A stretch of 64,000 nt of DNA from Phycisphaeraceae bacterium (GCA_963674705.1 OY771506.1:5216001-5280000), one strand, 5' to 3'. Shown: positions 27,441 through 48,307, counted from the first letter of the stretch. The notes: generated by a model not told the origin, from the letters alone. Made by a program: numbers and translations.

Positions 27441-28826
27441 TCAATCAACAAGCGCTTTACCCCCCGCTGAAATCCGCGTAGAATTAGTATCAACGTGGGC
27501 CGTGTAGCTCAGCTGGATAGAGCGGCTGCCTCCGGAGCAGCAGGTCAGAGGTTCGAATCCTCTCACGGTCATTAGCCCACCGGTGAAACAATCTGCAATA
27601 ACCGGAATACCCCTGAAATCCTCGGAAGATTTTGAGCAACCGACTAACTCTCGGCGGCTTGATTTCTGGTCGTTTCCGGTGGTTTCGGACATCTTCTGCG
27701 CCGCATTATGCGCCGCTCTTGATTCGAGCCCTGCCGCCCGGTCAAAGTGGGCGTCGGTCAGTTGCAGGTAATGAGCCGCGGCGACGGCTTCACTGTTGCC
27801 AAGCCACTTGCAGACAACGTGGATGGGATACGCTTCGGCCAGCTCTGTCTCCCGTGTGCTGCGGAGGTTTTGGTACAGCTTGGGCCAAGGCGCCAGGCCT
27901 GCCCGCTTGATGATCCGGTGCAGTTGTGTTCGCAGGTTGGTCCGACTGTCTAGGTATCGCGTGACCACGTGGACATCACCAGGCTCGGCCTGCTCGAATG
28001 CTTCCATCAGGATCGGACGCAGTTCGGGAAACAGCGGGATCATCCTGCTCTCACCACCGGGATGATGCTCAGTCTTCGGGCTCGTGACATGTATTCGGTT
28101 GTGTTCCCAGTTGATGTCCTCCCAGGTCAAGGCCAGCACTTCAGACGGGCAGCGCAGGCCACCAAATCGGGCAAGCGCAAAGATCAATTGCCACTGTACA
28201 TCAGGACAGTGATCCAACACCTTCCGAGCATCTTCACGTGACACGAAGTGATAACGTTTCGGATTGGCCCTCACGTTAGCGGCTAAACCTTCGAACGGGT
28301 TGGAGACGATCAGCCCCCCTTTCATCGCAGACTTGAAAAACTGCCTCGCCCTACCGATCGTGCGGCGTGCTGTGTTTTCAGCCATGCCCTGTGTAGCCAG
28401 GTGCAAGCGGAATGCTTCGGCATCAGCCGGCGTGATGTCTCTCATCGACCGCGGCGTCGTGAAGTATCCGAGCAGGTGATCCCGGGTGATTTCGAGATTG
28501 CGGCGCGTGCCCGGTTTGATGTCCTGCCGTCTTTCGATGTACGTGTTAATGAACACTTCAAGAGTGGACGTGTCACGAGCTTTGCACAGTCCCACTTTAG
28601 CAAGTTTCTTGTGCAGCACGTCATCAAGCGACGCGAGCCAGCGTGAAGTATCATCACGTGGAGCGTGCTTATGAATGGCGGAGGCGACCAGATCCTCAAC
28701 CTTGACCTTGACCGATTCGGCATGCCGAAGCGATAGCTTCCCGAGCCGGATCGTCCGACGTCGACCATCGGCGCCGAAGAACACAAGGCGCTTACGTCCA
28801 CCAGGATCATTGCATATACTCGCCAT
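27441..28826 (-). CDS. int: Tyrosine recombinase (phage-type integrase), 461 aa; ORF reads through attL and antisense across the tRNA
   Basis: GGLRCPSEVLAL, PKT, YQNLR, WLGNS, AHY catalytic-region motifs; ATG 28826 follows the xis stop. Confidence 0.92.
   Translation of the reverse strand: MASICNDPGGRKRLVFFGADGRRRTIRLGKLSLRHAESVKVKVEDLVASAIHKHAPRDDTSRWLASLDDVLHKKLAKVGLCKARDTSTLEVFINTYIERRQDIKPGTRRNLEITRDHLLGYFTTPRSMRDITPADAEAFRLHLATQGMAENTARRTIGRARQFFKSAMKGGLIVSNPFEGLAANVRANPKRYHFVSREDARKVLDHCPDVQWQLIFALARFGGLRCPSEVLALTWEDINWEHNRIHVTSPKTEHHPGGESRMIPLFPELRPILMEAFEQAEPGDVHVVTRYLDSRTNLRTQLHRIIKRAGLAPWPKLYQNLRSTRETELAEAYPIHVVCKWLGNSEAVAAAHYLQLTDAHFDRAAGLESRAAHNAAQKMSETTGNDQKSSRRELVGCSKSSEDFRGIPVIADCFTGGLMTVRGFEPLTCCSGGSRSIQLSYTAHVDTNSTRISAGGKALVD
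27498..27571 (+). tRNA. tRNA-Arg(CCG), CCA not encoded
   Basis: Acceptor GGCCGTG/CACGGTC, D arm GCTC/GAGC, anticodon arm GCTGC-CTCCGGA-GCAGC, T arm AGAGG-TTCGAAT-CCTCT. Confidence 0.96.
27559..27573 (+). repeat. attL core CCTCTCACGGTCATT (tRNA 3' end)
   Basis: Exact copy at 48293-48307. Confidence 0.9.
27697..27716 (+). promoter_or_regulatory. Putative integrase arm-type site pair (left arm)
   Basis: TGCGCCGCATTATGCGCCGC; 19/20 identical to 48223-48242. Confidence 0.7.
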
Positions 28827-28827
28827 A

Positions 28828-29046
28828 TCACTCACCTGCTTCACGGATTGTATCAACACGCTTGGACTTGTCGATGAATTCTCGGAGGTCGGCGGGATCG
28901 ATGCGCACACTCCGGCCGAACCTGACTGCGGGCAACTCACCCGACTTCACCAGGCTGTACACCGTGCGCCCTGTCACGCCGAGCATCTTGCCGGCGTCAT
29001 CGTAGGACAACAAACACTCTGTCGGGTTATGGATTGCAGCGGTCAT
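28828..29046 (-). CDS. xis: Excisionase-like HTH DNA-binding protein
   Basis: LLSYDDAGKMLGVTGRTVYSLVKSGELPAVRFGRSVRIDPADLREFI; directly upstream of int. Confidence 0.85.
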   Translation of the reverse strand: MTAAIHNPTECLLSYDDAGKMLGVTGRTVYSLVKSGELPAVRFGRSVRIDPADLREFIDKSKRVDTIREAGE

Positions 29047-29059
29047 ACTTCATCTCCAA

Positions 29060-29266
29060 TTACGTTGCTTTCCCAGTCTGAATATCTTGGCGATTGCCCT
29101 GCATGTCGTGATTGATTGGCTGAACCGATACACACCGCAGCCCGTGGCTTCGCAATAGCCTCTTGAGCACGCTTCGCAGCCTGTCCACCGGCATACGTTG
29201 ATACATATCACGGACGGCCAGCTCGGTTTTGATGTGGAGAACAAACTCAGTCGGACGCTGATTCAT
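29060..29266 (-). CDS. Small basic hypothetical protein of the rep-xis-int operon
   Basis: 4-bp overlap with the rep stop; RLRSVLKRLLRSHGLRCVSV. Confidence 0.6.
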   Translation of the reverse strand: MNQRPTEFVLHIKTELAVRDMYQRMPVDRLRSVLKRLLRSHGLRCVSVQPINHDMQGNRQDIQTGKAT

Positions 29267-30147
29267 GTAAACACCGCCTCACTAATTCGGCCCACAGGCA
29301 GTGTGTGCCCATCGATCACAACGCCCTGGCTGTTAGCCCCTGCGTTCATCCCGGGTGTAATGACGAGTGTCTTTTCGTCTAGTGTGATGCTTGCGATGTA
29401 ACCGTCACGACAGGCAGTTGCGATGTCCCCGGGCGTAGGCTGTTTGGTAGGCCCATCACCGTCACGCAATCGCCCAATCATCACGCCGACCCGGTTTTTC
29501 GGATTACCCGTGATTGTGAGCCAATGGCGGATAACGGTATCAGCGGTGGTAATCTCGGCGAGTTCCGCGGCTTTCGATTTCGTTACCCCAATTCGGACCA
29601 TCGCAGCAGAAGCCGCGTTGTTGCTGGTTTGTTCCGGTGCCTTCTTAATACATTCGTCTGGCCGCCGGGCCAGTGTTTCCGCGCCGCCGGGCCAGTGTTT
29701 ATGCGCCGTGTGACCAGTGTTTATTGCGCCGTCGGGACAGTGTTTCCCAGTATTATCACTTGCCGTCGGGACAGTGTTTCCATCCACCAAGATGCCGCCC
29801 AATACACTGGCCGGACGGACAGGGTTTAACAGATGGTATCTGTTCGACCTCGAGCGTCCACCCTTGCCCCGACCTGACCCGGTTCGGTCGCCACGGTCGA
29901 CGGCGATCAAGCAACAGTCCTCCAAATTTTTAATGCATTTAACTGTGTTGCTCTCAGACATTCGTGCCAGCTCTGCAAGTAGTTTTAGCCCGGGCCAGAC
30001 AACACGGTCGCTCGAACACTTACCACTCGCGAATCGTGTTAATTGTGTGTAAACATCACGAGCACCGCCACGTACATCACGCCACTCTTGAGAGTCAAGC
30101 ACGTTGGCAGGTATCATGGAAAAACCTGGGCGATGTTCACCCATCAC
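29263..30147 (-). CDS. Phage-type replication initiator with N-terminal winged HTH
   Basis: FSMIP..ARDVYTQL..WPGLKLLAELARMSESNTVKCIKNLEDCCLI..SNRYHL pattern; internal iteron array. Confidence 0.72.
   Translation of the reverse strand: MMGEHRPGFSMIPANVLDSQEWRDVRGGARDVYTQLTRFASGKCSSDRVVWPGLKLLAELARMSESNTVKCIKNLEDCCLIAVDRGDRTGSGRGKGGRSRSNRYHLLNPVRPASVLGGILVDGNTVPTASDNTGKHCPDGAINTGHTAHKHWPGGAETLARRPDECIKKAPEQTSNNAASAAMVRIGVTKSKAAELAEITTADTVIRHWLTITGNPKNRVGVMIGRLRDGDGPTKQPTPGDIATACRDGYIASITLDEKTLVITPGMNAGANSQGVVIDGHTLPVGRISEAVFT
29661..29779. repeat. Five iteron-like direct repeats inside the initiator gene (putative origin)
   Basis: GCCG-N6-CAGTGTTT at 29661, 29683, 29705, 29728, 29762 (spacing 22, 22, 23, 34). 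Confidence 0.75.
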
Positions 30148-30334: not shown

Positions 30335-30562
30335 TCAGGTCGAAGGAGCAACCGCGGGACACCCAGCATCAATCCATTGGCGGACTTCATCCGAGCGCCA
30401 ACGAACGAGGTTGTAGCCGAGTCTGATCGGTTGAGGCGTTTGATTACGCTTGGCCATTCTCATCACGGTACACGCGGACACGTTTAGCAACTTTGCAACG
30501 TCGCCAACCGTGAGCAGCTCAGATTTTTTACGATCGGGTTTGGTAGCTTGGGGCTGGGTCAT
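30335..30562 (-). CDS. AlpA-family phage transcriptional regulator
   Basis: LLTVGDVAKLLNVSACTVMRM..PQPIRLGYNLVRWRSDEVRQWIDAGCP; GGAGG RBS. Confidence 0.85.
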   Translation of the reverse strand: MTQPQATKPDRKKSELLTVGDVAKLLNVSACTVMRMAKRNQTPQPIRLGYNLVRWRSDEVRQWIDAGCPAVAPST

Positions 30563-30772: not shown

Positions 30773-31050
30773 TTGTTGTCATACGACCTGCCCGACCGCG
30801 ATGCGGCCAAGGTATGGATCATCCGTAACCAGCTTGGGCGCCGCAATCTCAACCACTTCCAGCGTGGGCGTCTGGCGCTCGAGCTTGAAGATCTGATTAT
30901 GGGGCGTGCAAAAGACAAGCAACGTGCAGCCGGTGGAGCGGTTCCGCAGAAATCTGCAGAAGCGCCTATCAAGACAGACAAAGAACTCGCGGTAATCGCC
31001 GGCGTCTCGCACGACACCATCCACAAAATCAAGCGCATTGAAAAGTCGAA
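30773..31050 (+). pseudogene. Internal fragment of a ParB-like protein
   Basis: DRDAAKVWIIRNQLGRRNL..ELAVIAGVSHDTI HTH; N-terminal domain absent, 3' end runs antisense into the next ORF. Confidence 0.55.
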
Positions 31051-31069
31051 TGACACTGAACATGGCGCA

Positions 31070-31651
31070 CTATTCAGCTCGATCAAGTCCCACTCTGCCG
31101 ATGACACTTGTACCTTCACCCTCTGGCGATGCTTTCAGATTGACTGCAGACACCGCATCTTCGATCTTCGGGATCCTGCCGCGGTTCCAGAAACTGCGAT
31201 CACTTCTTGGATCATTGATTAGTTGGACCAGCTTGGCGGGATCACCAGCCATCACGATCAAGACCTTGGCTCTTTCATGAATCATTTGCAGATATTCCAC
31301 CATGCCCGGCTTCGGTAGGTCTATGCGATCAAGAAAAAGTGGCCGTGGATTGGAAACGAGTGAAGCATTGATCTTGTCAATAACGTCGCTTCGGGTTCTG
31401 GCTATTGGTGCACCTACCGCAGTAGCAATGGCCTTGAGGAACTGCATATCTCTCTTCCACGAATCACACTCCAAGTAAATACCGCCACGGTTTACGGCCT
31501 GTTCCTGTAGCAACTCGCTTCGCATCGCATCATCGGTAAGTGTGAGACAACCATTCGCCGAAACTTCACGCCAAGCTTGATGGCTTCGGTAACGTGTCCG
31601 GCCGGCGTCGGGAACTTCATTGGGTCCAGGAATAGTGGTTCCATGCTTCAC
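31070..31651 (-). CDS. Degenerate AAA-family (MuB-like) ATPase-fold protein
   Basis: FLKAIATAVG..PRPLFLDRID..EYLQMIHERAKVLIVMAG resembles the MuB-type core; no Walker A, Walker B Glu replaced. Confidence 0.45.
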   Translation of the reverse strand: MKHGTTIPGPNEVPDAGRTRYRSHQAWREVSANGCLTLTDDAMRSELLQEQAVNRGGIYLECDSWKRDMQFLKAIATAVGAPIARTRSDVIDKINASLVSNPRPLFLDRIDLPKPGMVEYLQMIHERAKVLIVMAGDPAKLVQLINDPRSDRSFWNRGRIPKIEDAVSAVNLKASPEGEGTSVIGRVGLDRAE

Positions 31652-31952: not shown

Positions 31953-32600
31953 CTAGATGTCATTGATTGAGACTATTTGTTCGAGGTTGATAGACATCTT
32001 ACGACCACTTGGTTCAGCTTCACCATTCACATAGTAACCATCGTCCTGAAGATGCAATTCCTGCGGGACAAAGTTAAATGAAGTGGTATTCTCGATGGGC
32101 GCTTCGGTAAGATTTATTCTGCATAGACCATTGTCATTGATCATACGCATCATAGTCAGAAAGTGTTTTTTAGTGTTTGATGTCATCTGCGGTATGCGAT
32201 CAGAATCAACGGTGATAACATCTACAATCTCTTTACAAGCATCGCGTACTGTAGGTGTCACCTGATTCAGTAACTTGTTTATGGCATCAACACCACGATC
32301 AAAAAGCGGATGCCCCGTGCACTTGAGAGCATATTTATGGACCATCAGCAATCCGAGTATCTCGCTTGTGCTTAAATCCGTTGTCGGAATTGTCATGTTA
32401 GTGTCCATACGATATTCGCCCCGATTTGAGCATATTGGTTTGAGACCAATATCTGACAAGCATTTCATGTCCCGGAACAGAGTTCTGCGGCTGATTTGCA
32501 GCTGATGGATTAGATCCTGGATGGTGAGGCCATTGCTGTTTTGTATCAGCATTGCTAACCGCAACAGGCGAGTGATCCGGGATGCGCGAGTGGAATCCAT
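31953..32600 (-). CDS. HTH + shortened WYL-like transcriptional regulator
   Basis: RITRLLRL..TIQDLIHQLQISRRTLFRDMKCLSDIG, LSTSEILGL, C-terminal SH3-like segment; 215 aa. Confidence 0.7.
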   Translation of the reverse strand: MDSTRASRITRLLRLAMLIQNSNGLTIQDLIHQLQISRRTLFRDMKCLSDIGLKPICSNRGEYRMDTNMTIPTTDLSTSEILGLLMVHKYALKCTGHPLFDRGVDAINKLLNQVTPTVRDACKEIVDVITVDSDRIPQMTSNTKKHFLTMMRMINDNGLCRINLTEAPIENTTSFNFVPQELHLQDDGYYVNGEAEPSGRKMSINLEQIVSINDI

Positions 32601-32708
32601 AATCTAACTTTTGGTATGACGAAAGACATGAACTAAATGAAAATGGGGGGCACCTGAGGCTGGGCGAAGGGGGATAAGCCCATCTGATCCTGCAGGGCCC
32701 CCCGGTGG

Positions 32709-33071
32709 CTATGTTGTGGATACGATTGCTTGTCCCGAGCTGCAGTCCTTTGAACTTCCATTCCAAAGGCAGTACGTCCCGGTCGGATCATCAGAAGGTT
32801 CTCCGAGCCGGAAGTTAGTAATGCCTTGGCAACCGGATGGTGTAGAACCGTAATTAATGATTTGTAGTGCCCAAGATTGGTCCCCCCCTTCACTGATTGA
32901 GTACAGATTAACTAATGTAAAGTCACCACTGCTTCCGCTATAAACTGAATCGCTGACTTTGCTTAATGTCTGTTGTCCCTGACACGGAGAAATAACAGAT
33001 AAGAGCAGCGTGTCCGGAAGCGCTCCCAATCCCTCTCGATTACGCAAAATGGTACTCTCTAAGACATCCAT
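32709..33071 (-). CDS. Hypothetical Cys/Ser-rich protein
   Basis: 120-aa ORF co-oriented with the WYL-like gene; no recognised family. Confidence 0.4.
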   Translation of the reverse strand: MDVLESTILRNREGLGALPDTLLLSVISPCQGQQTLSKVSDSVYSGSSGDFTLVNLYSISEGGDQSWALQIINYGSTPSGCQGITNFRLGEPSDDPTGTYCLWNGSSKDCSSGQAIVSTT

Positions 33072-33287
33072 AGGTACTAACCCTTAAAAATATTAATATG
33101 TTGATGTGAAGCCAGTTATAACCATTTATAACCATCTGCCCCTTTACACAGGGCAGATATTTCGCTAGTATCCCCCTTCGCGAAATAGCCGTGTCCATAA
33201 GTGAATACGCATGCATTTACGGCATCTTGCGCAGGTAGGGAGAAATGGGCTTGTGTTTCTTCTTTTCTCTTATCTGCGAGGTGGAAC

Positions 33288-33950
33288 ATGTCGTGTCGGA
33301 TTGCTCATATCCCACTGATCCTGCTACTTCTAGTGATTACTCTTCAATCTACGCAAGGTGCGATTATCACCGAGTTGTCCGCGATGCGCGGGCCTGTTCA
33401 GGATGGTGTTGCACTACCCCTGGCAATACCGACAACTTATGTCGGTAATGACGAGGTTGAGTTCAATGTGAACTTTTCTCAACCGTTTGTGGTTTTGGGA
33501 ATTACAGCAAGCATTCCCAAAGTGCAGTTTCTGTTCTATGTTGATGTTTCCGAAGCCGGTGGTACGACAGAGTATTTTTTCAACTTTGCATATCAGAACC
33601 ACACAGGTATTACATGGACCGATCTGTATTACACTATTTCTGCAGAATCATTAACAGGTACTCCAATAGTCGTACCGGGTTTAGACTTTGACTGGCCGGA
33701 CAAAACGGCGCTTGGGATGTCATCCCTCAATTTTGCCTATGTGGACCATCAAGAGACAATACTGCATTGGTATGGAGGTCAAGTAGTCGATCCGACAATT
33801 GATACGACGCTTGTACCTGTCGATGTACCGGATTTCTCTGAAGATTACTACATGGTCATCACGCTTGAAGTACCCGAACCATCAGCATTCACTGCCTTAA
33901 TGGTCATGGCGGGGGCTTGTGTGTACAGAAGGCAGATCCGGCTGAGCTAA
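33288..33950 (+). CDS. PEP-CTERM secreted protein
   Basis: Signal peptide; [25 protein letters not shown] tail; GAGG RBS before ATG 33288. Confidence 0.75.
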
Positions 33951-34666
33951 TGGTTGGCAAACCACGAGTAGTCTTGATCAGCATCAGATATGTTGTCCGA
34001 GAGTTCACTTAGGGTAAGTCGTACAACAGAACTGTCGGCGTAGACAATATTCGCGGCTTCCCGGCCATTGTGGTGCATGCCCACACCCCACGTGACACTC
34101 CTTGCATAGGATGTGATTGGCATATACTGGAAGGTCATAGCTGTTCTACCAAAATAGAACAGCTCGGGGTCTGCAAACCATGGATAGTCTGAGGGTTTCT
34201 GTATCTCGTATCGGCTTTTACCTTCATTTAACACGGTCGCGGTTGAGTTCCATATCGAGTTGATTGAATACCCCCAGGTAATGCCCGCAAATAGAACGGT
34301 GTCGTTCTGGTCAATTATCGATGGGCAGGCATTGAACGTAGGAGGTTCTTCCTCCGAAAGTACCGGTGCATCCCCATAAACATTATTCATCAAATGAATC
34401 CATGTAGGATTGTTGATGGGGTCTGATGAGGCGTGCCGCGTAAGTGGGATACGGTCTTTATTGTTGTCCAGTGCGATTTCCCAGAAGGTCTGTATTTGGC
34501 GCAGGTTTGACATACACAGCGTGGCACGTGCTGACTTCCTGGCCGCGCCCAGAGCAGGCAGAAGCAAGCTAAATAGAATCGCAATGATCGCTATCACCAC
34601 AAGTAATTCGATTAGCGTAAAACCGCCCACGATCGAATCGGATTGCCGTCTGTTAACACCCCTCAT
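33947..34666 (-). CDS. Prepilin-type N-terminal cleavage/methylation protein (planctomycete DUF1559-like)
   Basis: [42 protein letters not shown]-terminal [17 protein letters not shown] (H-X9-DG-like). Confidence 0.85.
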
Positions 34667-37596
34667 CGTGTACTCCAGCGGTAATAGCGATTCAATCCCA
34701 AGCCTATGACTTCCTCTCCGCTTTCAGTGAACTGTATTGTGGTAACAAGTCCTTCGATTTTGTCCTCAATGACATCCAGGACAAAGCCATGCTCCACTGA
34801 CCACACAGCAATTCGCTCGCCGGCTGTTATAAGGCGCTTCCCGTCAGGGGATAGTGCGAGTGATAGTATTGCACCAAGATCGCCCGCGCCCTCCATCCGC
34901 TTTTGCTCACCTGACACAACATCGATAACCGTCACTTCGTATTTACTGTCAACCGTTGCCACAATCGGAGATCGTCCGGCAACTGCCAGATAAATAATCG
35001 GATTACTGCCAAGCAGGTTGTTATACACCTGCCGTTTTAATTGAATATCTCTGACCTCAAGATAGTACTTCCCATCGGCATGCCTGATCATCACGATTTG
35101 TGGGTTGCTGGTACGAAGCCATTTTGCCGGCCCACGTCGATCAAACCAATGTACCGGATCGCCCCCGGCCTTTGGCCAGACAAGCACCTCTTGAGTGTTT
35201 GAGGCAACTATGAATGTACTGTGAGGCGAATAATCCAGCCAGAGTGCGGGCTGTAATGCCATCCGAATGGACTCAGAAGATAGTCTGTCTGCAAGAATAC
35301 TTACAAGCGAGTCGTTGTCAGCTACAGCAATTTGATGTGTGCGGTTATCCACCGCAATCGCCGATGTCATGCTGGGAAATTCGAATTGATCTAGCAACTT
35401 GCCATCTGATCTTTCACACCCAGAATCGAGCACATAAATATCGTTGCCTTCATTTGCACACGCAATATGCATGCCGTCGCTACTGACCGCAGATACCAGT
35501 GCGTGGCCGGATGGCCACATGTTCATTTCATGGATACCCCAATTTGTTTCCCACTTTTTCAGGATTCCGTTCGTGTCGAGGGAGTAGAGCCTCTCGCCGC
35601 TAAGATCAAACTTCGTCTTTACTATTGGATCAGCATGCCCGTATACAGGGCGATATGAGTTATTGCGCAGATCGACAAGGTAAATCGTACCGCTACTTGT
35701 GCCAGCAGAAAGCATCCCGGCATTATTGCTTGATGAGAGTGACCCCGCTTCCACAGGAAGTTCCACAATGATGGTTCTGTCTGTAGGTGACGACAAATCA
35801 TAATCCATCACATATCCCCCGGTATAACCAACGAAAAGGTGGCCGCCAAGAGATGTCAATGACAATGGCGATTCCCTCTCGAACTCCGAATTGAACTCTG
35901 TAACTGACAGCTTGTGAAGATCAAGCACATTAAAAGAAGTGTCATACCAGATAAGTCTGTTTGCTTCGTGGTCGAAAGTGACTGGCCCCCAAACCGACAT
36001 GGCTTGCTGTGAATAGATAACAGAATTAACCGCCATGTCGTATATAAACATTTCATCCGAATTCTTCAGCAGGATATAGCGACCGTTGTCACTCACGCGT
36101 AATAACAGAGCACCAGTTTCTGCCAAAATACTCGGGGGGGTATTAAGTGACGTTTCACGGTTCACAAATACATAGCGCCCTGAGCCATCAATTCCTATGA
36201 TGTAGTTTGCGCTGGGGCTGATGAATACGGGAGACAAAGTATGTTCTAACGGCGTGTTAAGTACTGAATCGGTCTTGTCCGAAGTAACCTTGCCAACCCG
36301 GCCTGAGGTCAGGATATAAAAGACATCTCCCGTTGGACCAATATTGAAGTCACGGATCCGACTCGGACTAAACTTCCAGGTATTAACTGATTGATCGGTC
36401 AGTTGTGACAAATACTTCCATTCCCATTGCCTGTGCTGTGGTTCAGTTTCTTCCAGCAGGTGCCTGGCTAGCTGTAACTCATCAGATGTAATTCTTTCGT
36501 GGGCGGAACGCATTGTATCCCTGTATGACTCAGCGCCGCTGCGCGATAATCGGGCTTGATTTACGACCTCTCTCTGATAAAACGCATATGAAAATACAGC
36601 CACCAGAAGAGTAATGGTCGCCACCACAGTCGCGCATTGGCGTAGCAGTATTCGATTTCGTTTAGCCCACAATAGTGTACGGCGCGTGTAGGTGTATGAG
36701 CGTGCTGAAATGGGTCGAAGGTCTAGCCAGAGACGCAACTCCCGGGCTAAGGCGCCCCCATCAGAGTACCGAGCCGATGTAATATTTGAAGTAGCCTTCT
36801 CGATGATCTTAAGCAGATCCAAATATTGATACGTGTCGCAATCTCGATCTGCTCCCGTGATCAGCATCTGGAGCAATCTGCCTAAAGCATAAACGTCTGC
36901 GCGAGAGCCAATGCTGACATTGGTCCCAAACTGCTCTGGCGCTGCGTATCCACTTGTCCCCCCGATATATGCTTGGCATGAATTTAATTCACGAGAGCCT
37001 TCTATTGCACGGGCTAAGCCAAAATCGACGATGTGAGGTAGACCATCTTCGCTAATCAATACATTAGTCGGTTTTATGTCAAGATGAACGACACTGTTGT
37101 CGTGAGCGTAGCCGATAGCATCGCTAACTCGTGCCACAAGATCTACGACCTGGGTTAACTTAAGGTGCTTTGCATGGACAAAGGTGTCAATTGGACATCC
37201 TTCGATCAACTCCATGACGTAAAAATACTCAAGACGATCAAGCCCACTATCGAACACACGAACTATAGCCGGATGCCTGAGCTTTGCTGCTAATAGCACT
37301 TCTATATGGAACAGCGATGCCGCACTTGGTTTATTTAGTAATTCATGCTTGAGAGACTTTAAGGCGACGATTTGTCCAGTCCCTAATTGCTTAGCTTTCC
37401 ATACTGTCCCCATGCCCCCTTGGCCGATCTTGCTGAGAATGCTGTAACCCTCTTTGGCGGCGGGCTGTTGAATGGAGATGTATTCCGGCCCGACATCATC
37501 CAACGCTGACTCATCTGTGACAGCAAGAGCCATTCCCAGCAACTCACGTGCTGCCATATCAGATACGAGTTCAGATGGATCGTTGTATCTACTCAT
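34663..37596 (-). CDS. Ser/Thr protein kinase with TM segment and WD40-like propellers
   Basis: [59 protein letters not shown] repeats. Confidence 0.9.
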
Positions 37597-37644
37597 ATCG
37601 AATATCTAAGAACGCTATGGCTGGATAACAAAGCAAATAATCCA

Positions 37645-38545: not shown

Positions 38546-38711
38546 CTTCCGGGGGCAAGATATTTCGAACACAGTCTAGGCAAGTTCGAGGTTAAGTCAA
38601 TTATTCTCTGAGTGATTATGAAGAAATATAGATAGTGTCATCAGCAACTTGTGTAAAAAACTATTGGCACATCACTCAAGCAATGGGTACAAGATCATCA
38701 CCTACTTACAC

Positions 38712-39545: not shown

Positions 39546-40091
39546 TCAGTGGGTCAGGCGGTAGGTTTGTCCGTTCATCCTGATGGACACGATGCTGTCG
39601 ATGGCGATGGTGCGTTCGATCACTTCCCGGTCGATGCCCTGCCGACTGCCGGCCTTAGCGGGCATGAAGGGGTCGAGTTCTGCCGGGTCGATCAACTCGG
39701 CGGTGTCGATCGTCTCGAAACGCCGCCACAAGCAACGCTCAACCTTGACGCTCAAGTACGTCTTGCCCTTGTGCTCAACGATGGGCGTGCCGGGGATGCG
39801 TTCGCCCCACTGGCGGCTGCATGCCTGGAAGTCGCCGGCCTTCTCTTCACGGCCACGCTGGCGGTTCACCGCGGCTTCGTAGTCGTAGTTCAGCACGCCG
39901 TTCAGGGCCTGCACCTTGACGACGTTGCCGGCGTAGGGGTTGCCGGTCTTGCGGAGCCGGGGGTCGGTCCTGGTGGTGATGGTGACGATCCGCGTGCCGG
40001 TATTCACGGCCAGTTCTGCGAGAAGTTCATCGGCGGTCAGGGCCGGGGTTTCGGTCGCGGGCATCGTGATTGGGCTGGTCAGGGTTGTCAT
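39546..40091 (-). CDS. Phage-type hypothetical protein
   Basis: 181 aa; RKTGNPY..NYDYEAAVNRQR..WGERI pattern recalled from phage hypotheticals; first gene after the leftward promoter. Confidence 0.6.
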   Translation of the reverse strand: MTTLTSPITMPATETPALTADELLAELAVNTGTRIVTITTRTDPRLRKTGNPYAGNVVKVQALNGVLNYDYEAAVNRQRGREEKAGDFQACSRQWGERIPGTPIVEHKGKTYLSVKVERCLWRRFETIDTAELIDPAELDPFMPAKAGSRQGIDREVIERTIAIDSIVSIRMNGQTYRLTH

Positions 40092-40211: not shown

Positions 40212-40240
40212 TTGCCGTATCGTATGCGATGCGGTACACT
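40212..40240 (+). promoter_or_regulatory. Rightward sigma70 promoter overlapped by a second operator
   Basis: TTGCCG-17 bp-TACACT; operator CCGTATCG-TATG-CGATGCGG at 40215-40234. Confidence 0.65.
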
Positions 40241-40271
40241 TATTGTGTGTATGGGGCCTGGAGAATCTCAG

Positions 40272-40499
40272 GTGAGTAGCGACATCCGACAGGCAATCCG
40301 CGACCGAATCGAAGCCAGGGGTTTCAACATCAGTGAGTTGGCCGATCGTGCCGGCTTTTCCCGCGTCACACTCAGCCGTTATCTGTCCGGCCAACAAGAC
40401 CTCACCACGGCCAAGCTGCAACCCTTGATTGATGTGCTGGGCCTTGAGCTACGCGCATCACGCGGCAGGCCATCTAAAAAATCAGGATCTGGAGGTTAA
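40272..40499 (+). CDS. XRE/Cro-like HTH regulator
   Basis: FNISELADRAGFSRVTLSRYLSGQQDLTTAKLQPLIDVLGLEL; GTG start after GGAG. Confidence 0.8.
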   Translation: MSSDIRQAIRDRIEARGFNISELADRAGFSRVTLSRYLSGQQDLTTAKLQPLIDVLGLELRASRGRPSKKSGSGG

Positions 40500-40720: not shown

Positions 40721-40859
40721 CTGTTAATCAACGAATGCTGCAGTTTGCATGAAGTACGCTTACTAAAGACGGTCGAGGAACGGACACCAGGACGCCCGCC
40801 AAAAGAGGAAGCATGAGCCTCGCCCCTCCAGCCAAGGCTTGCATGACCGACAGGATGAC

Positions 40860-41422: not shown

Positions 41423-42571
41423 ATGTTCCAATTCATCCTGGTCGTCCTGCTGGCGGTTTTCATATCTGCGACAGTTGTATTGGCGATCTTTGTGGCCGAG
41501 TTCTACGGCCGCGGCGGCAGGACCATCATCAGGCAGTGGCGTATCGCCCTATCAAAGCGTCGCCAGGTTAACGATGCTCTGAAACGCGCCAGCGCCGGCG
41601 AGGCTTATGCAGCCAGAACCATCCAAGAAAAACGTGTCATAGAACAAAAGATGGAGATGCTGGAGAAGAAAACAGAAGGTCGGCTTTCATGCATGGGCAG
41701 CTACATCATCTCAGAGCAATGTGGCGATCACATCAAGGGGATACGGGCAAACAACTATCACGCGAAAGAGAAGAAGATCCTTCGATCAATCGAGGTCGCC
41801 GCCAAGAACGGCTACCACCTGCCGAAGACTGAGCGCGAACAACTGAGCCGCATGCTCAAGCAAGCACACGATGAGGCGATACGGGCGGAGAAGGAAAAGG
41901 AACGCCAGGCGGAGATACGTGCACAGATGCGTGAGGAAGAGAAGCGGGAGCGTGAGTTCCAGCGTGCCATCAAAGAAGCTGAGAAGGAAAAGAATCTCAA
42001 GAAAGCAGCTCTTGAAGAAGCCATCCGGTTGCTCGGTGATCAGCACAGCGAAGAGGTTGACCGATTGAAAGCCGAACTCGCCGAAGCGGAGGCCAAGGCA
42101 GAACGAACCATCAGCATGGCGCAACAGACACGCGCCGGCCACATCTACATCATCAGCAACATCGGGAGCTTTGGAAAGAACGTGTTCAAGGTCGGCATGA
42201 CCAGACGGCTTGAGCCGATGGAGCGGGTCAAAGAACTTGGTGACGCATCCGTCCCCTTCTCATTCGACGTCCATGCCATGATCAGCTCGGACGACGCCCC
42301 TGCCTTGGAAACCCAATTACATCAGGACCTGGACAAGCACCGCGTGAACCGTGTGAATTATCGAAAAGAATTCTTCAGGGTCGACTTGAACACGATCATC
42401 CAGTGTGTTCGCAAAAGGCATGGCGAGGTTGAATATCAGGCCGACCCCGAAGCATTGGAGTATCTTGAGACACTGGCCCTGCTCGAAGGGGATGAGGATG
42501 TCGAGCAATTGATCGATCGTGATGCAGATTTGGTTGAAGAGGATATGCAGACTGACACAACAAAACGGTAA
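41423..42571 (+). CDS. Membrane-anchored DUF4041 + T5orf172 (GIY-YIG) nuclease; candidate anti-phage protein
   Basis: N-terminal TM; coiled coil (IRAQMREEEK); AGHIYIISNIGSFGKNVFKVGMTRRLEPMERVKELGDASVPF..RKEFF. Confidence 0.85.
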   Translation: MFQFILVVLLAVFISATVVLAIFVAEFYGRGGRTIIRQWRIALSKRRQVNDALKRASAGEAYAARTIQEKRVIEQKMEMLEKKTEGRLSCMGSYIISEQCGDHIKGIRANNYHAKEKKILRSIEVAAKNGYHLPKTEREQLSRMLKQAHDEAIRAEKEKERQAEIRAQMREEEKREREFQRAIKEAEKEKNLKKAALEEAIRLLGDQHSEEVDRLKAELAEAEAKAERTISMAQQTRAGHIYIISNIGSFGKNVFKVGMTRRLEPMERVKELGDASVPFSFDVHAMISSDDAPALETQLHQDLDKHRVNRVNYRKEFFRVDLNTIIQCVRKRHGEVEYQADPEALEYLETLALLEGDEDVEQLIDRDADLVEEDMQTDTTKR

Positions 42572-42589: not shown

Positions 42590-43000
42590 ATGCCCAAATA
42601 CACGGTTAGCGGGATCGATAGGGAGGATGGCGGGGTCCGCTTCACCACGGTCACAGCAAACAACTCAGACGATGCAGCCAAGATGGTCGGTTTCCAGGTT
42701 GAGAAAGTCGAGCAGGTTCATGACCAACCATCGCCGCCGGCAAAGCCGCCTTCATCAAGGACACCCAGCTATCCCGTGATGGCGATCTACATCGTTCTGC
42801 TGCTGGTGATCGGCTACCTGCTGGTTATCATTGGCTGCCTGACCTTTTTGATTTCACTGCTGCCTGCTGATGGCCATGAGGGGGCACAAATAGGTGGCGG
42901 GTTGTTCGCACTCTACGCCGTCCCTACCGGCCTTGGCCTCGCGTTGATGGGTGAGGTGTTACGAGCCTTCCGCGACATCGCACGCAATAGCTTCAGGTGA
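42590..43000 (+). CDS. Small 2-TM membrane protein
   Basis: Soluble N-terminus, Pro-rich linker, two TM helices, GEVLRAFRDIARN. Confidence 0.65.
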   Translation: MPKYTVSGIDREDGGVRFTTVTANNSDDAAKMVGFQVEKVEQVHDQPSPPAKPPSSRTPSYPVMAIYIVLLLVIGYLLVIIGCLTFLISLLPADGHEGAQIGGGLFALYAVPTGLGLALMGEVLRAFRDIARNSFR

Positions 43001-43073: not shown

Positions 43074-43313
43074 ATGCATCAACTGCCAGATCTACCGGAT
43101 AAGAAGTGGCTCAAGCCTTGTGACCTCATGGAATACTTCGGGGTATCTAGGTCAACACTAGGCCGAATGGTGAAGGATGGCTGGCTCCGAAAACCTGACA
43201 CGAGTTTAGGTGAACGCAATCCCCGTTGGTGGGCGCCAATGGTTGATGAGTATGCCCGCCGGCAGATTGAGGCAATAGAGTCAGCACGAAAGCAGCAATT
43301 CAACCAAACCTGA
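43074..43313 (+). CDS. AlpA-like HTH protein
   Basis: WLKPCDLMEYFGVSRSTLGRMVKDGWLRKP..PRWW. Confidence 0.72.
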   Translation: MHQLPDLPDKKWLKPCDLMEYFGVSRSTLGRMVKDGWLRKPDTSLGERNPRWWAPMVDEYARRQIEAIESARKQQFNQT

Positions 43314-43393
43314 AGGTGGGATTGCCAACCAAAGTTAAAATGCAAAGGCATGACTTGCCTAGGACTTCACCGAGGCATTGAATTTACACCAGC

Positions 43394-43813
43394 TTACGCA
43401 TTTCTTTCTAATTCGACCGTTTCACCCAGGAATGAATACTGTGCGTGAATATGAAAAATACCTTCAAGCAGTGTGACGCAATTACGAACCATGATCGGTA
43501 TCAAGCAGGGCTTTCCAACTAGTTTTTCGAAGCTGATATAGATCATGTCATCTGTTTGCATTTCCTGTTTGGTAATACAGCTAATCCCTCCGATAGACAG
43601 GTCAACAGCATAGGCTTCACATAGATCCTCATATTCGCCCTCACCAACTTGGTGCAACAAGGAGACCTTGGCGCCAAAGTAAAATCGATGGTGGCGCCGT
43701 CGCTCCCTTTGTTCTTGATCACGCTTCTCCAGTCCACGTACAAGTTTACCAATGGCTCTTCGAAGTTGCTCATTCGAAGTAAGTAAATTCAACTGTGTCA
43801 TTTGCTTCCCCAA
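43394..43813 (-). CDS. PilZ domain protein (c-di-GMP receptor)
   Basis: ERRRHHR (RxxxR) and DLSIGG (DxSxGG). Confidence 0.78.
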   Translation of the reverse strand: MGKQMTQLNLLTSNEQLRRAIGKLVRGLEKRDQEQRERRRHHRFYFGAKVSLLHQVGEGEYEDLCEAYAVDLSIGGISCITKQEMQTDDMIYISFEKLVGKPCLIPIMVRNCVTLLEGIFHIHAQYSFLGETVELERNA

Positions 43814-44193: not shown

Positions 44194-44583
44194 TCAAGCG
44201 GTAGATTCAACCACCTCGCCACTCGCCTGCTCGCCCACGGTGACGTCCAGCATCCGCCGGCCGCTACCAGCCAGCCCGTGCCCATCGGTCCAGGCGACGC
44301 ACCACACGGGCGTCAGGGCCGGCGTGGGCGCCTCGGTGTCGTGGTCCCACACGACCAGCACGGCCCCGGTACCGCGGTCGCGTACACGCCACATTACGCG
44401 GCTGTGCTTAGGATCGCCGGGGAAGCCGGGATCATCACGCCAATGGGGTTGGCCTAACGCTTCAGCGATGCGGTCGTAGGGTGTGCGCAGTGTACCCGTG
44501 TGCTGGTATTTGATCCGCTCGGTAGTGGGAATGGGTTGAAGCTCAATCATGAGTAGTCGGCGATCCTGCTGGGTGTGGGGCAT
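44194..44583 (-). CDS. Hypothetical protein, last gene of the tail operon
   Basis: Starts 17 bp after the upstream stop; GTLRTPYDRIAEALGQP..W motifs. Confidence 0.55.
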   Translation of the reverse strand: MPHTQQDRRLLMIELQPIPTTERIKYQHTGTLRTPYDRIAEALGQPHWRDDPGFPGDPKHSRVMWRVRDRGTGAVLVVWDHDTEAPTPALTPVWCVAWTDGHGLAGSGRRMLDVTVGEQASGEVVESTA

Positions 44584-44600
44584 CTCAATCGGTCACCAGT

Positions 44601-44879
44601 CTACCGCACGTCGCGGCGTAGGTTGTAGATGTACTGAACCAATTCGGCCGATCGCCCATCTTCCTCAATCAGCTTGCGGCACATCTGCGAGTCGCCCAGT
44701 GCCCCAAATCCGCATAGCCTCTCGCCGAGTTCCGCCGCTGCGTCATGTGCTACAGGATCGGTGAGGATCCACCCCATCATGGCGTGTATCTCTTCCGTGC
44801 TAACGCCGTTGGCCATGCGGCCGACTGATTCACGGACCCGCTTCTCAAGCTGTTGAATGCGGTTTCTTACAGTGCTCAT
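44601..44879 (-). CDS. Hypothetical helical protein
   Basis: 4-bp overlap with the upstream gene; MSTVRNRIQQLEKR. Confidence 0.6.
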   Translation of the reverse strand: MSTVRNRIQQLEKRVRESVGRMANGVSTEEIHAMMGWILTDPVAHDAAAELGERLCGFGALGDSQMCRKLIEEDGRSAELVQYIYNLRRDVR

Positions 44880-45214
44880 AATGAATCTATCCCCATCTGC
44901 TGTTCAAGCTGGTCGAGGCGTTCGATCAGGTCGGCTTCGATTGGCTTACCGAGGCACCGGTCGAGTACTTCCTTGGCAGCCTGCACGTTGCCTTCAAGTG
45001 CCAGCTCCACCAGTTTCTTGACGATGTCGGTCAGTTCATCCTCGGTGACTGCGGTGAGCATAGTTGCTCGCAGCCTGTTCACTTGTTTGGCGTGTGGATT
45101 ACCCTTGCCACCCTTCCATCCAGGCAGAAAACGGCCCGTGTCGGGGTCTCGCCCATTTCCATTGGACCCATTAAGTGATGGATTCTCATTGTCGCTTTTA
45201 TTTGCCATGGTCAT
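44876..45214 (-). CDS. DUF5681-like / small terminase subunit-like protein
   Basis: GRDPDTGRFLPGWKGGKGNP followed by IVKKLVELALEGNVQAAKEVLDRCLGKP. Confidence 0.62.
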   Translation of the reverse strand: MTMANKSDNENPSLNGSNGNGRDPDTGRFLPGWKGGKGNPHAKQVNRLRATMLTAVTEDELTDIVKKLVELALEGNVQAAKEVLDRCLGKPIEADLIERLDQLEQQMGIDSL

Positions 45215-45222
45215 ATCCCTTT

Positions 45223-47400
45223 TTACGTTGCTAGCGATGTCGCCGCTTGTTCAATCAACGCACTTAACGCGTCAAGATTTTCACTGACCCGGTTCATCGT
45301 GCCGGCGTTTTGCTGGGCGTTCTTTTCTTGCTTTTGCATGAATTCACGCTGTTGTTTGAGGAACTCTCGTCCGATCGCGTCGAACAAACCGGGTAACTCA
45401 TTGATCGTGTTGCCCAGGCCCTCTACTGACTGTTTGAGTTCGCCACCGGATACAACATCGGCCGCGTTGTAGGCTACATCATCGCTCGGCTTCGCCATCC
45501 GCCGCACAGCCGTCTCAAATCCACCCGGTCGGTCTGCCCCGCCTGATCCACCGACCATCACGTCAAACATGCTTCTGTTCGCCATGTCGTCCGATCCACC
45601 GGGCTGGCCAACGGTGTGTTGATTCGTCTGCATGCCGGAGTCTGACAGTTTCAGCCCATAGAGTGAGCCGATGATGCTTTTGAATGTCGCGTCTTCGGGT
45701 AATCCTAACTGGCTCTTGATGATGCCGATGGGGTCAAACTTCGGGTCTGACTGGCTGGCACGTTCGTTGTACTTATCCAAGAAACGGCGTTGCGCCTCTG
45801 TCAGTGTTGACAGCAGGTATTTTTCAAGGGAATCTTGAATCAGCCCCGCATTCTTCGGATTCTGAGCGGCCGCTTCATTTGCATCCTTAATCCGCTTCAG
45901 CGTTGCAGGCGATCCGAAGCCGGCCAGTATCTTGTCGGCCTCCAGTTCCGTGTTGGCTTTGTCCTGTGCGATCTTCCTGATGCGCTTGCGTGCGCCGGGG
46001 TCGCTCTCGTACCGGTCCGCAACCTCCGGATCACTGAGCATGCCTTCAAGTATCCGGTTAAACCGATCAGCAAACGGGGCTTTCAGCCGCCTCTTAGCAT
46101 CGTTGATCTGCTCGGGTGTGACCTTCCCCAACTCGATCGCATTGACACCCACACCGTACAGGTCGCCCTGACGCCCGGGCTCGGTGGGTGCGAACCTTGT
46201 GGCGATGTCGCCTATCAGGTCGCGGATGGGCTTGAGTGCATCGATCTGGCCGGCAGACTCACGAAGCGCAGCCGCGCCACGTTGTAAGACACCACCAGAC
46301 GATTTCTCAGCCGCTGCCAGTGACTTCTCATCGATGCCGAGGAATTTGGCCAGGCGTGGGGCGATGGTCTGGATTCCCCGACCGATAGCAGCAGCTACCT
46401 GCTTACCCATGGCCGCATAATCGAGCGAGCCCAGAATATCGAGCAGCGCAGCCGCACCGAGTTTGAAAGCTTTCTCCAACAGCCCGCCCAGTGTCTTAAA
46501 CAGGGCCGGTCCAAGCTGGATAATGCTTACCAAGATGCCCTTGGCAATGTCTTTGCCCTGATCGCCTTGTAGGCCGGCCAGAATGTCGCCGGTAAGTTCA
46601 GCAACATACTGGATCGCATCACGCACGAAACCGATTTTGACCACCCACCGCCCTACCTCACCAACGATGTCTTTGATGTTGCCGAAAATCGCGTTGTAGG
46701 TCAGATACAACTCATCACCCTGAAGGCCAAGCCGATGAGCACGCTTTTCCAATTCTTCAACGGTGCGATTCAGGGTTTTCGCTTGCTTGGCGGCGAGTTT
46801 GAGCCCTTGAAGTTCCTCCGCGCCAACGAAGATGCCGAAACGTTTGGGCGGTTCACCGCGGGCGATCGAATTCAGCAACTCTTCGATGTCGGGCCCGATG
46901 CTGTCTTGACGACCACGCGCTACGGCCAGGACCGTGAACGCCGAAATCAATCTTTCGATCTTCTCAACAGGGACATCGAGAATGCCCGCCTGGTTTGCCA
47001 ACTCTGAAGCGCGTGCGAAATCGAGCATGCCGGCCGATGCTGCGTTGATGCGACTGATATATCGGCCCGCCACCTTCTCAGTGACATCCAGTTGTTTGGC
47101 CAGTGCCTTGGTGCGCAACTCTAACGCTGAGGCGTTGCGGATAAGCCGGTCAGTCCCCAGCCCACCCAGCCCGATACCAATGATCGCTTGGATACTGGTA
47201 AGCACTCTGAAGGGTGCCATTAGCGCCTTAGCAAGAATGCTGCCGGCGACACCGATGCCCTTGAAGGATGCCGATGCAATCCTCCCCACGGACCTGAATG
47301 CACCACCGAGGCGATTCTCGACCATGCCGGCATCACGCCGAAGCTGTTTTTCAAGCTCTCTGCCGTCTGTCTGGATTTCCGCACCAATCACGATTGCCAT
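45223..47400 (-). CDS. Tape-measure-like protein (725 aa)
   Basis: Long Ala/Gly/Leu-rich amphipathic helical protein; GAGG RBS; directly downstream of a frameshifted chaperone gene. Confidence 0.78.
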   Translation of the reverse strand: MAIVIGAEIQTDGRELEKQLRRDAGMVENRLGGAFRSVGRIASASFKGIGVAGSILAKALMAPFRVLTSIQAIIGIGLGGLGTDRLIRNASALELRTKALAKQLDVTEKVAGRYISRINAASAGMLDFARASELANQAGILDVPVEKIERLISAFTVLAVARGRQDSIGPDIEELLNSIARGEPPKRFGIFVGAEELQGLKLAAKQAKTLNRTVEELEKRAHRLGLQGDELYLTYNAIFGNIKDIVGEVGRWVVKIGFVRDAIQYVAELTGDILAGLQGDQGKDIAKGILVSIIQLGPALFKTLGGLLEKAFKLGAAALLDILGSLDYAAMGKQVAAAIGRGIQTIAPRLAKFLGIDEKSLAAAEKSSGGVLQRGAAALRESAGQIDALKPIRDLIGDIATRFAPTEPGRQGDLYGVGVNAIELGKVTPEQINDAKRRLKAPFADRFNRILEGMLSDPEVADRYESDPGARKRIRKIAQDKANTELEADKILAGFGSPATLKRIKDANEAAAQNPKNAGLIQDSLEKYLLSTLTEAQRRFLDKYNERASQSDPKFDPIGIIKSQLGLPEDATFKSIIGSLYGLKLSDSGMQTNQHTVGQPGGSDDMANRSMFDVMVGGSGGADRPGGFETAVRRMAKPSDDVAYNAADVVSGGELKQSVEGLGNTINELPGLFDAIGREFLKQQREFMQKQEKNAQQNAGTMNRVSENLDALSALIEQAATSLAT

Positions 47401-47412
47401 GATGTACCTCGA

Positions 47413-47987
47413 TTATCTGGTTGCCCTCTCCGCTTCTTGTTCACGCTTGCGGAGGATGGCGGCGCAAAACGGATAGATTCTTGTTATGTAATCGCCGTAG
47501 TTCCGTTCGATGAAACTCGCATCGACGCCCGTTACCTCTTTAATCGCACCGAGCATTGACAGCCGGTGCATGATCACACACGCACCGACGTCGGGGCATT
47601 CGGCCCCGTTCAGGAATTGCTCGGTGCCTCGGATTTTCCCTCGATAGCGTCCGCCGATTCGTCATCACCACCGGACAGGTCGAAGCCGTTGGCCTTCAGC
47701 AGTTCGTCGTTAAACCACGGACCGAACGCCGGCTCCTGATGAACCACCGCATCAAGGGCACGAACCGAGTACGGCGCGGCGTTGCCGTCTGGGGTCTCGA
47801 CGCCTTCCCACTTGAGGACGCCAACGCCCTGCTGGGCCAGCTCTACGAACACGCCACCCATGCCGCCGTTACTGTTGGCCAGCAGCTTTGTTCGTTGCGT
47901 GTGGCCCAGCCGTTTGAAGGTGACAGTGATCCCCGTTGGCTCATGGGTCAGGGTGGTGGTCTGCTTGTGTTCAGCATTCAGTTTCAT
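47413..47987 (-). CDS. Tail assembly chaperone, frameshifted long form (gpGT-like)
   Basis: -1 slip at G GGA AAA (47640-47634) opens 73 further codons ending at TAA 47413, 12 bp before the tape-measure ATG. Confidence 0.72.
47610..47987 (-). CDS. Tail assembly chaperone, short form (gpG-like, 125 aa)
   Basis: VLKWEGVETPDGNAAPYS motif; ends EGKSEAPSNS; AAGGA RBS before ATG 47987. Confidence 0.75.
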   Translation of the reverse strand: MKLNAEHKQTTTLTHEPTGITVTFKRLGHTQRTKLLANSNGGMGGVFVELAQQGVGVLKWEGVETPDGNAAPYSVRALDAVVHQEPAFGPWFNDELLKANGFDLSGGDDESADAIEGKSEAPSNS

Positions 47988-48054
47988 GTTCAGTGTTCCT
48001 TGCCGGCTTGTGTGACACCCAGCGGCCACCGGCGGGCCGTGGGCTGGTGAGTGT

Positions 48055-48306
48055 TCATGTCTCGCGTGTCAGCGTCAGGATGGCCGCACGCCGGCCGGGG
48101 GACATCCGGGCCAGGGCGTTGATGTGATCAACCACCGCCGCCCTCTCGGCCTCGGGTATGGCGTTGAGCGCGTCGGCCAAGCCATCCAGATCAGGATTGT
48201 GAATTGTGGAAAACGCAGGCAGTGCGCCGCATTCTGCGCCGCCTACATACGAAAAGTCGATATTTCCCGGGAAATCGTAGGGGTGTTCACACCCTCTCAC
48301 GGTCAT
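48055..48306 (-). CDS. 83-codon ORF starting in the attR core; alternative integrase C-terminus in the excised circle
   Basis: Begins MTVRG, the same codons and frame in which int crosses attL. Confidence 0.55.
   Translation of the reverse strand: MTVRGCEHPYDFPGNIDFSYVGGAECGALPAFSTIHNPDLDGLADALNAIPEAERAAVVDHINALARMSPGRRAAILTLTRET
48223..48242 (+). promoter_or_regulatory. Putative integrase arm-type site pair (right arm)
   Basis: TGCGCCGCATTCTGCGCCGC, 50 bp inside attR. Confidence 0.7.
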
Positions 48307-48307
48307 T
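48293..48307 (+). repeat. attR core CCTCTCACGGTCATT
   Basis: Exact duplicate of the tRNA 3' end at 27559-27573. Confidence 0.9.

Follow-up and report, generated by a model that had tools for sequence, protein, structure and literature searches.

Head-less tRNA-integrated islands of Phycisphaeraceae carry a siphophage-type tape measure cassette and probably act as tail-modifying phage satellites

Introduction

Several groups of phage satellites carry genes for a tape measure protein (TMP). The PLEs of Vibrio cholerae encode a TMP together with a tail assembly chaperone (TAC), with or without BhuB; they build their own TMP into chimeric tails, and deletion of the PLE tmp gene lowers transduction by 96-99.9% (PMC12987554). 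The same source notes tmp genes in the capsid-forming kind (cf-PICIs) of phage-inducible chromosomal islands (PICIs). TMP and altered tails are described for the EPIPs of Mycolicibacterium in a preprint that names an EPIP capsid protein in one sentence (PMC12822802), and some satellites of Escherichia coli combine capsid and hub genes with a TMP gene (PMC10055350). Here we analyze an island in Phycisphaeraceae bacterium, contained in a 64,000-nucleotide stretch of its genome (GCA_963674705.1 OY771506.1:5216001-5280000; hereafter the window, to which all coordinates refer unless another contig is named). The island spans 20.7 kb (27559..48307), sits at tRNA-Arg(CCG) and carries TAC and TMP genes of siphophage type without recognizable head genes. 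An earlier note on this DNA had held that known satellites act mainly on heads, a view that the TMP genes of PLEs, cf-PICIs, EPIPs and E. coli satellites do not support. It also knew of no such element described in Planctomycetota; in agreement, our search of the open-access literature found no planctomycete phage-satellite case, with the proviso that supplementary satellite lists could include a closer one.

Results

A siphophage-type chaperone and tape measure pair

The tail operon occupies the minus strand at the right end of the island. The gene at 47610..47987 encodes a gpG-like TAC of 125 amino acids (aa) that is 38% identical (E 2e-17) to the TAC of a phage in G730, an assembly from the same host family. 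The window TAC itself matches phrog_313 at E 0.003 and the G730 TAC does so at 2.5e-8. A gpT-like extension of the chaperone in the -1 frame (47413..47642, minus strand) overlaps a slippery G GGA AAA near 47636-47642, which is identical in the window island and in a second island (G401, described below), and the -1 frame remains open over 75 codons in the window, 73 in G401 and 74 in phage G730. TAC homology, the kept slippery site and the open -1 frame before the TMP gene predict frameshifting in a gpG/gpGT layout of the lambda type. A low-confidence fold model of the TAC (predicted local distance difference test score 57) weakly matches the TACs YqbN and Rbstp2171, as well as PLE ORF19 (Z 4.2-4.3, root-mean-square deviation (rmsd) 4.0-5.1, 78-91 residues aligned), and no match in the fold search reached Z 5 or more, or E 0.001 or less.

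The adjacent 725-aa protein (45223..47400, minus strand) has no direct match in Pfam, PHROGs or NCBIfam when searched alone. It is 33% identical over 298 aa to the phage TMP P0013 of G730 (E 1e-37), and the ESM atlas places it at 0.96 to a TMP_3 cluster. A profile built from this protein and two homologues recovered 14 proteins among 1.8 billion. Of 14 aligned family members, five match the TMP family phrog_3779; the best TMP match was 1.4e-9. P0013, a 909-aa protein, lies directly after virion genes and a TAC: in G730, genes for a decoration protein, major capsid (3e-81), Mu gp36-type adaptor (1.4e-13), neck, tail tube (PF18906, 1.3e-16), TAC and TMP follow one another in order. This cluster spans two contigs, joined via P0013, of an assembly that is 78% complete and in 220 contigs. 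Homology and gene position thus indicate that the TAC and TMP are genuine, in line with the earlier note, which had named a chaperone and a tape measure in this operon and had allowed that the 725-aa protein might prove unlike a TMP; the P0013 homology, the TMP profile matches and the phage gene position speak against the latter.

In a tree of 14 N-terminal TMP regions, from which the fragments P0009, P0014 and P0019 were left out, the island TMPs form a clade with 100/100 support apart from the G730 phage TMP. G730 is thus a relative of the cassette donor and not an established helper, because the tree separates island and G730 TMPs. The G730 module and the island share a homologous TAC, the TMP N-terminal region and the -1 frame layout, to which the phage adds heads, a neck, a tube and downstream genes.

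The third gene of the operon (44876..45214, minus strand) encodes a protein with a below-cut-off match to DUF5681 (PF18932, E 0.0013). Its earlier designation as a small terminase is the unsupported part of the operon description: PHROGs searches with 23 DUF5681 homologues gave no small terminase subunit, comparison with PDB sequences gave no terminase match, and the fold search against viral folds returned no terminase and only E values above 0.1. No DUF5681 relative was found in GenBank phages. A DUF5681 protein is reported in a phage particle proteome (PMC8954984). Two small conserved open reading frames (ORFs) of 129 and 92 aa (44194..44879, minus strand; 73% and 43% identical to their G401 counterparts) end the operon.

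A second head-less island and purifying selection

A genome of the same genus, G401 (identical to G445), contains a 14.8-kb island bounded by a 47-bp repeat of tRNA-Gly(GCC). Its genes run in the order small ORF, TAC, -1 ORF, TMP, DUF5681, two small ORFs, cargo, membrane protein, 181-aa protein, 247-aa protein, MuB-like gene and alpA. The G401 TMP has 655 aa and is 62% identical to the window TMP; the integrase barely matches that of the window (E 0.005), the replication gene differs, and the cargo is a 1300-aa Upx-like defence gene that falls below the NCBIfam cut-off. Searches of the G445 genome with six head and terminase families gave no match inside the island.

Both tail genes are under purifying selection. 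Between the window and G401, the nonsynonymous (dN) and synonymous (dS) substitution rates of the TAC gene are 0.17 and 1.10 (dN/dS 0.16), and those of TMP codons 100-300 are 0.18-0.30 and 2.1-2.5. Outside codons 100-300 of the TMP gene dS is saturated, and the protein is poorly conserved past codon 500. A third contig, of 30,626 bp and known from proteins alone, encodes a TAC, a DUF5681 protein and a TMP piece; these proteins are tied together solely by the identical size of their contigs.

The earlier note had raised the prospect that the closest relatives would be full prophages and this copy a unique deletion with relaxed selection. That account does not stand: a second head-less island, at a different tRNA, is the closest relative, and TAC and TMP evolve under purifying selection. 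A unique prophage deletion is ruled out by these two observations together with the tail-less family to which the flanking genes belong.

A widespread DUF5681 island backbone

The DUF5681 family occurs in 52 of 401 genomes of the order Phycisphaerales. Among the 28 loci examined, the best of 58 non-self matches, none has a TAC or TMP profile match within 1.5 kb of the DUF5681 gene. Three of the 28 carry a homologue of the att-side small ORF of the window island just upstream (by profile), within 15 nt in two cases, and nine have a tRNA-arm motif no more than 700 nt upstream. Seven loci, picked for their long contigs, were extended to 20 kb. In five of them DUF5681 lies near one end and an integrase 5-17.5 kb away at the other, and four of these five have 21-45-bp repeats; of the other two, one looks truncated and one exceeds the 20-kb stretch. 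Three integrases of the extended loci match the window integrase at E 1e-90 to 1e-99. No TAC or TMP profile match was found in any of the seven, which were not scanned for capsid genes.

These comparisons indicate that the backbone is a common Phycisphaerales island of the form att-DUF5681-integrase, elsewhere without tail genes. The TAC/TMP cassette was probably captured from a siphophage and inserted between the att-side small ORF and DUF5681, since the same backbone elsewhere carries no tail genes. Homologues of the att-adjacent small ORF (48055..48306, minus strand) directly precede DUF5681 in the tail-less islands, and the start of the 92-aa ORF resembles an ORF that follows DUF5681 there.

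The cassette itself is rare. A class-wide search with the single TMP recovered 2 of 401 genomes, including its own; an order-wide TMP profile recovered 5 of 401, two of them marginal (E about 1e-3), and one marginal TAC match was seen (G748, 3.2e-4). Two other islands in G000, the genome that carries the window, appear PICI-like: by ORF inspection, the one at C1:1869000-1884200 has a DUF5681 gene, a primase-like ORF and restriction-modification-like cargo, and the one at C1:541800-551000 sits at tRNA-Gly and has integrase-like, primase-like and alpA genes.

Boundaries and remaining genes of the island

Exact 15-bp copies of the attachment (att) core lie at 27559..27573 and 48293..48307 (both plus strand) and are the only two copies in the 5.5-Mb genome; the repeat lengthens to 23 nt at 87% identity. 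The target tRNA-Arg(CCG) gene (27498..27571, plus strand; ARAGORN) is intact at the left junction. Island extent is fixed independently by the sister genome G511, because its flanking DNA matches up to 27571 (97.6%) and resumes at 48351 (94.7%). Just inside the two ends lies a 20-nt direct repeat (95%; 27697-27716 and 48223-48242), whose copies are candidate integrase arm-binding sites.

The left end holds integration, replication and regulatory genes on the minus strand. The tyrosine integrase gene (27441..28826; phrog_1, 5.7e-41; PF00589, 9.2e-9) reads on through the att core and the tRNA gene to 27441, as in its island homologues (L107-L109, E 1e-90 to 1e-99). The catalytic-type residues R, K, R and Y align, whereas in HxxR the H is replaced by Q in the window and by N in L109. 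An excisionase-like HTH_17 gene (28828..29046; PF12728, 6.7e-13; phrog_66), a replication initiator gene (29263..30147; phrog_270, 2.7e-6) with four 22-nt iteron-like repeats inside it (29661-29783), and an AlpA regulator gene (30335..30562; PF05930, 4.2e-7) follow. A MuB-like AAA fragment (31070..31651; phrog_296, 1.8e-4) overlaps a probable gene fragment on the plus strand (30773..31222) that has no family match above noise, was not found in the G401 copy and resembles the tail of a ParB-associated phage protein. The MuB-like gene of G401 matches phrog_296 at 7.3e-9, and both it and the window copy lack Walker A and the Walker B DE.

Toward the right are about 6.4 kb of host-like, low-GC cargo (31953..38370) comprising genes for a WYL-type regulator, a 120-aa ORF, a PEP-CTERM-like protein, a prepilin N-methyl protein, a Ser/Thr kinase-WD40 protein and an extracytoplasmic function (ECF) sigma factor. 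In run X7 this block (31953-38561) and the island remnant occupy different contigs, the block being 94% identical; therefore it seems to move separately or to have been captured from the chromosome. Beyond it lie a conserved 247-aa protein (38712..39455, minus strand; 54% identical to the G401 copy) and the most conserved gene of the island, encoding a 181-aa protein (39546..40091, minus strand; 85% identical to G401, dN/dS 0.14). Relatives of the latter occur in uncultured phages, with 36% identity to one jumbo-phage record and ESM atlas leads at 0.80 only. An XRE repressor gene (40212..40499, plus strand; PF01381 (HTH_3), 1.8e-9) diverges from the 181-aa gene and is followed by a 72-aa ORF and an HTH_17 gene (40839-41075; PF12728, 4.1e-7). 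A PD-Lambda-1-like anti-phage defence protein with a T5orf172 domain (41423..42571, plus strand; PADLOC, 3e-88, covering profile positions 165-481 of 491), a membrane protein (42590..43000, plus strand; 54% identical to the G401 copy), and an HTH_17-like gene on the plus strand and PilZ-domain cargo on the minus strand (together 43074..43813) complete the set. The host-like cargo and the defence gene went unmentioned in the earlier note.

Profile scans of 29 ORFs in Pfam and 25 in PHROGs gave no match to capsid, portal, large terminase, tube, tip or lysis families, in agreement with the earlier note, and repeats and profile matches likewise bear out the att repeats, int, xis, alpA, initiator with repeats and repressor that it had listed. 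A very divergent structural protein may be present among the 181- and 247-aa proteins, which were searched by profiles and not folded. A promoter and terminator scan stayed at chance level.

Virion and transposition genes elsewhere

Genome G000 contains a virion cluster (L051, C1:1737864-1750264; L052, C1:1769779-1774553) with portal (1.7e-26), scaffold, major capsid (3.6e-80), adaptor-like, fibre-like and lysis-like genes. Neither a tube nor a TAC or TMP gene was seen in it, and a large-terminase gene lies 20 kb away. Its capsid gene is mostly single copy, at 59-99% identity across genomes of the family, and in G000 the cluster is interrupted by an insertion-sequence-like ORF pair. The cluster looks domesticated and resembles a gene transfer agent (GTA); no description of it was found in the literature.

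In genome G071, a stretch of contig C21 (29400-43100; L014, L015) encodes a repressor, MuA (1.7e-66), MuB (1.5e-26), a 665-aa TMP from the family of the island TMPs, a sigma factor and GemA and has no head genes, and a Mu-like head-only cluster lies on contig C9 (57604-64200). The C21 element may be a transposable satellite or one part of a Mu prophage that has been split.

G445 carries two 6.1-kb copies, 99.5% identical, of a locus (L053; C2:1782151-1788235 and C2:2463681-2469765) with a head protease, an HK97-type capsid and a 571-aa protein that is TMP-like by eye and has no family match; one copy ends at tRNA-Ser(CGA), and no integrase lies beside the annotated copy. In G000, 30 tRNA genes occupy one strand of about 12.5 kb (C1:622400-634800). 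Within the window, repeats that are 70-87% alike near 340, 1690, 3190, 6020 and 8410 mark a tandem paralogue family (330-8650) that differs in G511.

Discussion

The island has the att repeats with a tyrosine integrase at a tRNA, the alpA and divergent regulators and the replication module that are sequence-level features of PICIs, and the profile scans found none of the capsid, portal, large terminase and lysis genes that PICIs lack. For packaging redirection, a further PICI feature, the DUF5681 gene is at most a candidate. Gram-negative PICIs resemble the island in the att site at a tRNA, the tyrosine integrase, xis and alpA, an initiator with repeats, defence cargo that is readily swapped, and absence of head and lysis genes; the island differs in its TAC and TMP, its size of 15-21 kb, the lack of a recognized primase-helicase and a small terminase that is only putative. 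With PLEs it shares an integrated state, a TAC beside the TMP, no tube gene and a TMP shorter than that of the related phage, and the PLE ORF19 structure is a weak match for its TAC model (5ir0, Z 4.2, rmsd 5.1, 90 residues aligned). By contrast, the island belongs to another phylum and not to a Vibrio host in which phage ICP1 is parasitized, uses a tyrosine integrase at tRNAs, has an alpA and DUF5681 backbone without a recognized hub or Rta, and carries a chaperone pair with the siphovirus-type -1 frameshift; the tail of the PLE helper ICP1 is contractile.

EPIPs are likewise small satellites with a TMP, in their case accompanied by a small terminase subunit, and their tails differ in length from the helper's; however, they have a serine integrase, a head-tail adaptor, a stopper and tails longer than the helper's, and no TAC is listed for them (PMC12822802), whereas the island integrase is of tyrosine type and no adaptor match was found. 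The cf-PICIs, and the RepA_N satellites of E. coli, are att-flanked, often at tRNAs, and have a predicted TMP and few other tail genes (PMC12987554, PMC10055350), but encode capsid proteins, none of which is recognized in the island; the searches found the capsid, portal and terminase genes of a cf-PICI neither in the window island nor in the G445 island. By these features the island resembles the PLE tail module and is neither a PLE, a cf-PICI nor an EPIP. New are its occurrence in this phylum, a frameshift cassette of siphovirus type and the absence of recognizable head genes; chimeric tails built on a satellite's own TMP are already published for PLEs.

By analogy with PLEs, the island is probably a PICI-like satellite that puts its own TMP into tails made of helper siphophage parts. 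The earlier note had suggested such a TMP replacement, and among the mechanisms considered it is the best supported, the support being that analogy. Helper infection would lift repression, Int and Xis would excise the island, and Rep would copy its DNA, which would then enter helper heads, perhaps steered by the DUF5681 protein, the weakest step of the scheme. If the lambda model applies, gpG would coat the island TMP and frameshifted gpGT would recruit helper tube protein, with heads and tail tips supplied by the helper, which would lose tail parts. The island particles would have tails of about 75-115 nm: on a published scale of 95 aa for 10-15 nm, 725 aa corresponds to that range and the 909 aa of G730 to 95-145 nm (PMC12987554). 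Island TMPs as a group have 655-725 aa.

Several observations weigh against this proposal. Complete copies number only two among 144 family genomes, so that the check suggested earlier for the same architecture in other planctomycetes yielded one second copy, in G401. At the same tRNA, the island of G511 measures 4 kb, has a different integrase and retains no more than about 440 bp of the element, 93% identical. Runs X4 and X7, which are not counted as independent because one of them may be the G511 source, share two deletions (44834 to 45286 and 45445 to 48351) through which DUF5681, TAC, the right att and most of TMP are lost. The TMP on the 30,626-bp contig is called as a 267-aa C-terminal piece, and the MuB-like gene, a single 191-aa frame in G401, is frameshifted near codon 33 in the window. 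The island is thus not intact in every part, as this gene and the apparent gene fragment at 30773-31222 show. No helper was identified: no tail-tube gene over cut-off was found in G000, G445 or G511; viral-contig scans found no relatives of the TMP, the 181-aa protein or the G730 tube, and metagenome contigs gave no TMP relative. The co-resident long-tailed prophage that the earlier note had suggested looking for was not found in G000 with six family profiles (PF06074, PF03864, PF03237, PF05876, PF05065 and PF18906). Neither PHROGs nor PDB sequences nor viral folds lend support to a packaging role for DUF5681, and no baseplate-hub or capsid-remodelling gene is recognized in the island, unlike PLE11.

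The decay invites the view that the tail genes are inert leftovers, either of a prophage that has become defective or in a genomic island that merely carries passengers. The decayed copies in relatives, the frameshifted MuB-like gene, the split TMP, the 6.4 kb of host-like cargo and the contigs of run X1 fit it, the last having even depth over island and flank and no loose end at the right att, a pattern that is uninformative on excision, since contigs lose rare forms and the stretch was too short to include both att sites. Indeed, the insertion may predate the split from G511, since 93%-identical remnants sit at the same tRNA in relatives, and the window copy may be old and partly decayed. 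Against inert leftovers stand the same head-less junctions at two tRNAs with different integrases and saturated synonymous divergence, the dN/dS of about 0.1-0.2 for TAC and the N-terminal half of TMP, and flanking genes that come from a tail-less island family and not from a phage tail region; we regard this explanation as improbable. Selection also bears on the somewhat less remote idea, still an unlikely one, that the cassette is mainly a weapon, in which TMP and gpG/gpGT titrate helper tube or baseplate proteins into dead-end tails and protect the host population, the island travelling in ordinary helper particles or not at all. Interference with tail assembly is reportedly a known defence strategy (PMC11364771, PMC10884400), and both complete copies hold other anti-phage cargo (PD-Lambda-1-like and Upx-like). 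Productive assembly fits better than poisoning, however, because a full-length TMP and both chaperone forms, which are what assembly needs, are kept under selection; moreover, the satellite tail inhibitor Rta is an 80-aa protein separate from TMP (PMC12987554).

Two further accounts concern the identity of the helper. The island may be a satellite of a Mu-like transposable siphophage, adding to its own TMP an ATPase-dead MuB decoy that jams helper transposition or shields the island. The Mu gp36-type adaptor of G730, the MuB-like genes without Walker motifs in both islands, and a sister TMP clade that adjoins MuA and MuB in the head-less G071 element speak for it; no MuB or Mu portal was found in the 78%-complete G730 assembly, the window MuB-like gene is damaged, and a profile of the two MuB-like genes matches the G071 MuB weakly (E 0.006 in a tiny set). 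We consider this version doubtful. Our search found no published satellite of a transposable phage. Far less probable is a helper in the form of the host's own GTA-like virion cluster, whose heads DUF5681 islands would hijack and to which this lineage would add a tape measure. A syntenic portal-scaffold-capsid-adaptor-fibre cluster does lie among core genes in G000 and G445. Of 144 family genomes, 98 have its capsid gene; two of its tail-region genes are shared with phage G730 (E 2e-21 and 2e-4), and G000 has a separate large-terminase gene. Yet no tail-tube gene was found in these genomes, and a tube is required for a TMP with gpGT to work on.

So far, only one family of satellites has been shown to swap tails, against a contractile-tailed phage. 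The apparently independent capture of a TAC/TMP cassette by a head-less island in another phylum suggests that this strategy evolves repeatedly. Possible gains from an own TMP include shorter tails, control of DNA injection and escape from TMP-sensing defences, and the tail-less sister islands offer a natural before-and-after comparison for the value of a private tape measure. The widespread and apparently undescribed DUF5681 island family itself represents a set of candidate phage satellites in Planctomycetota.

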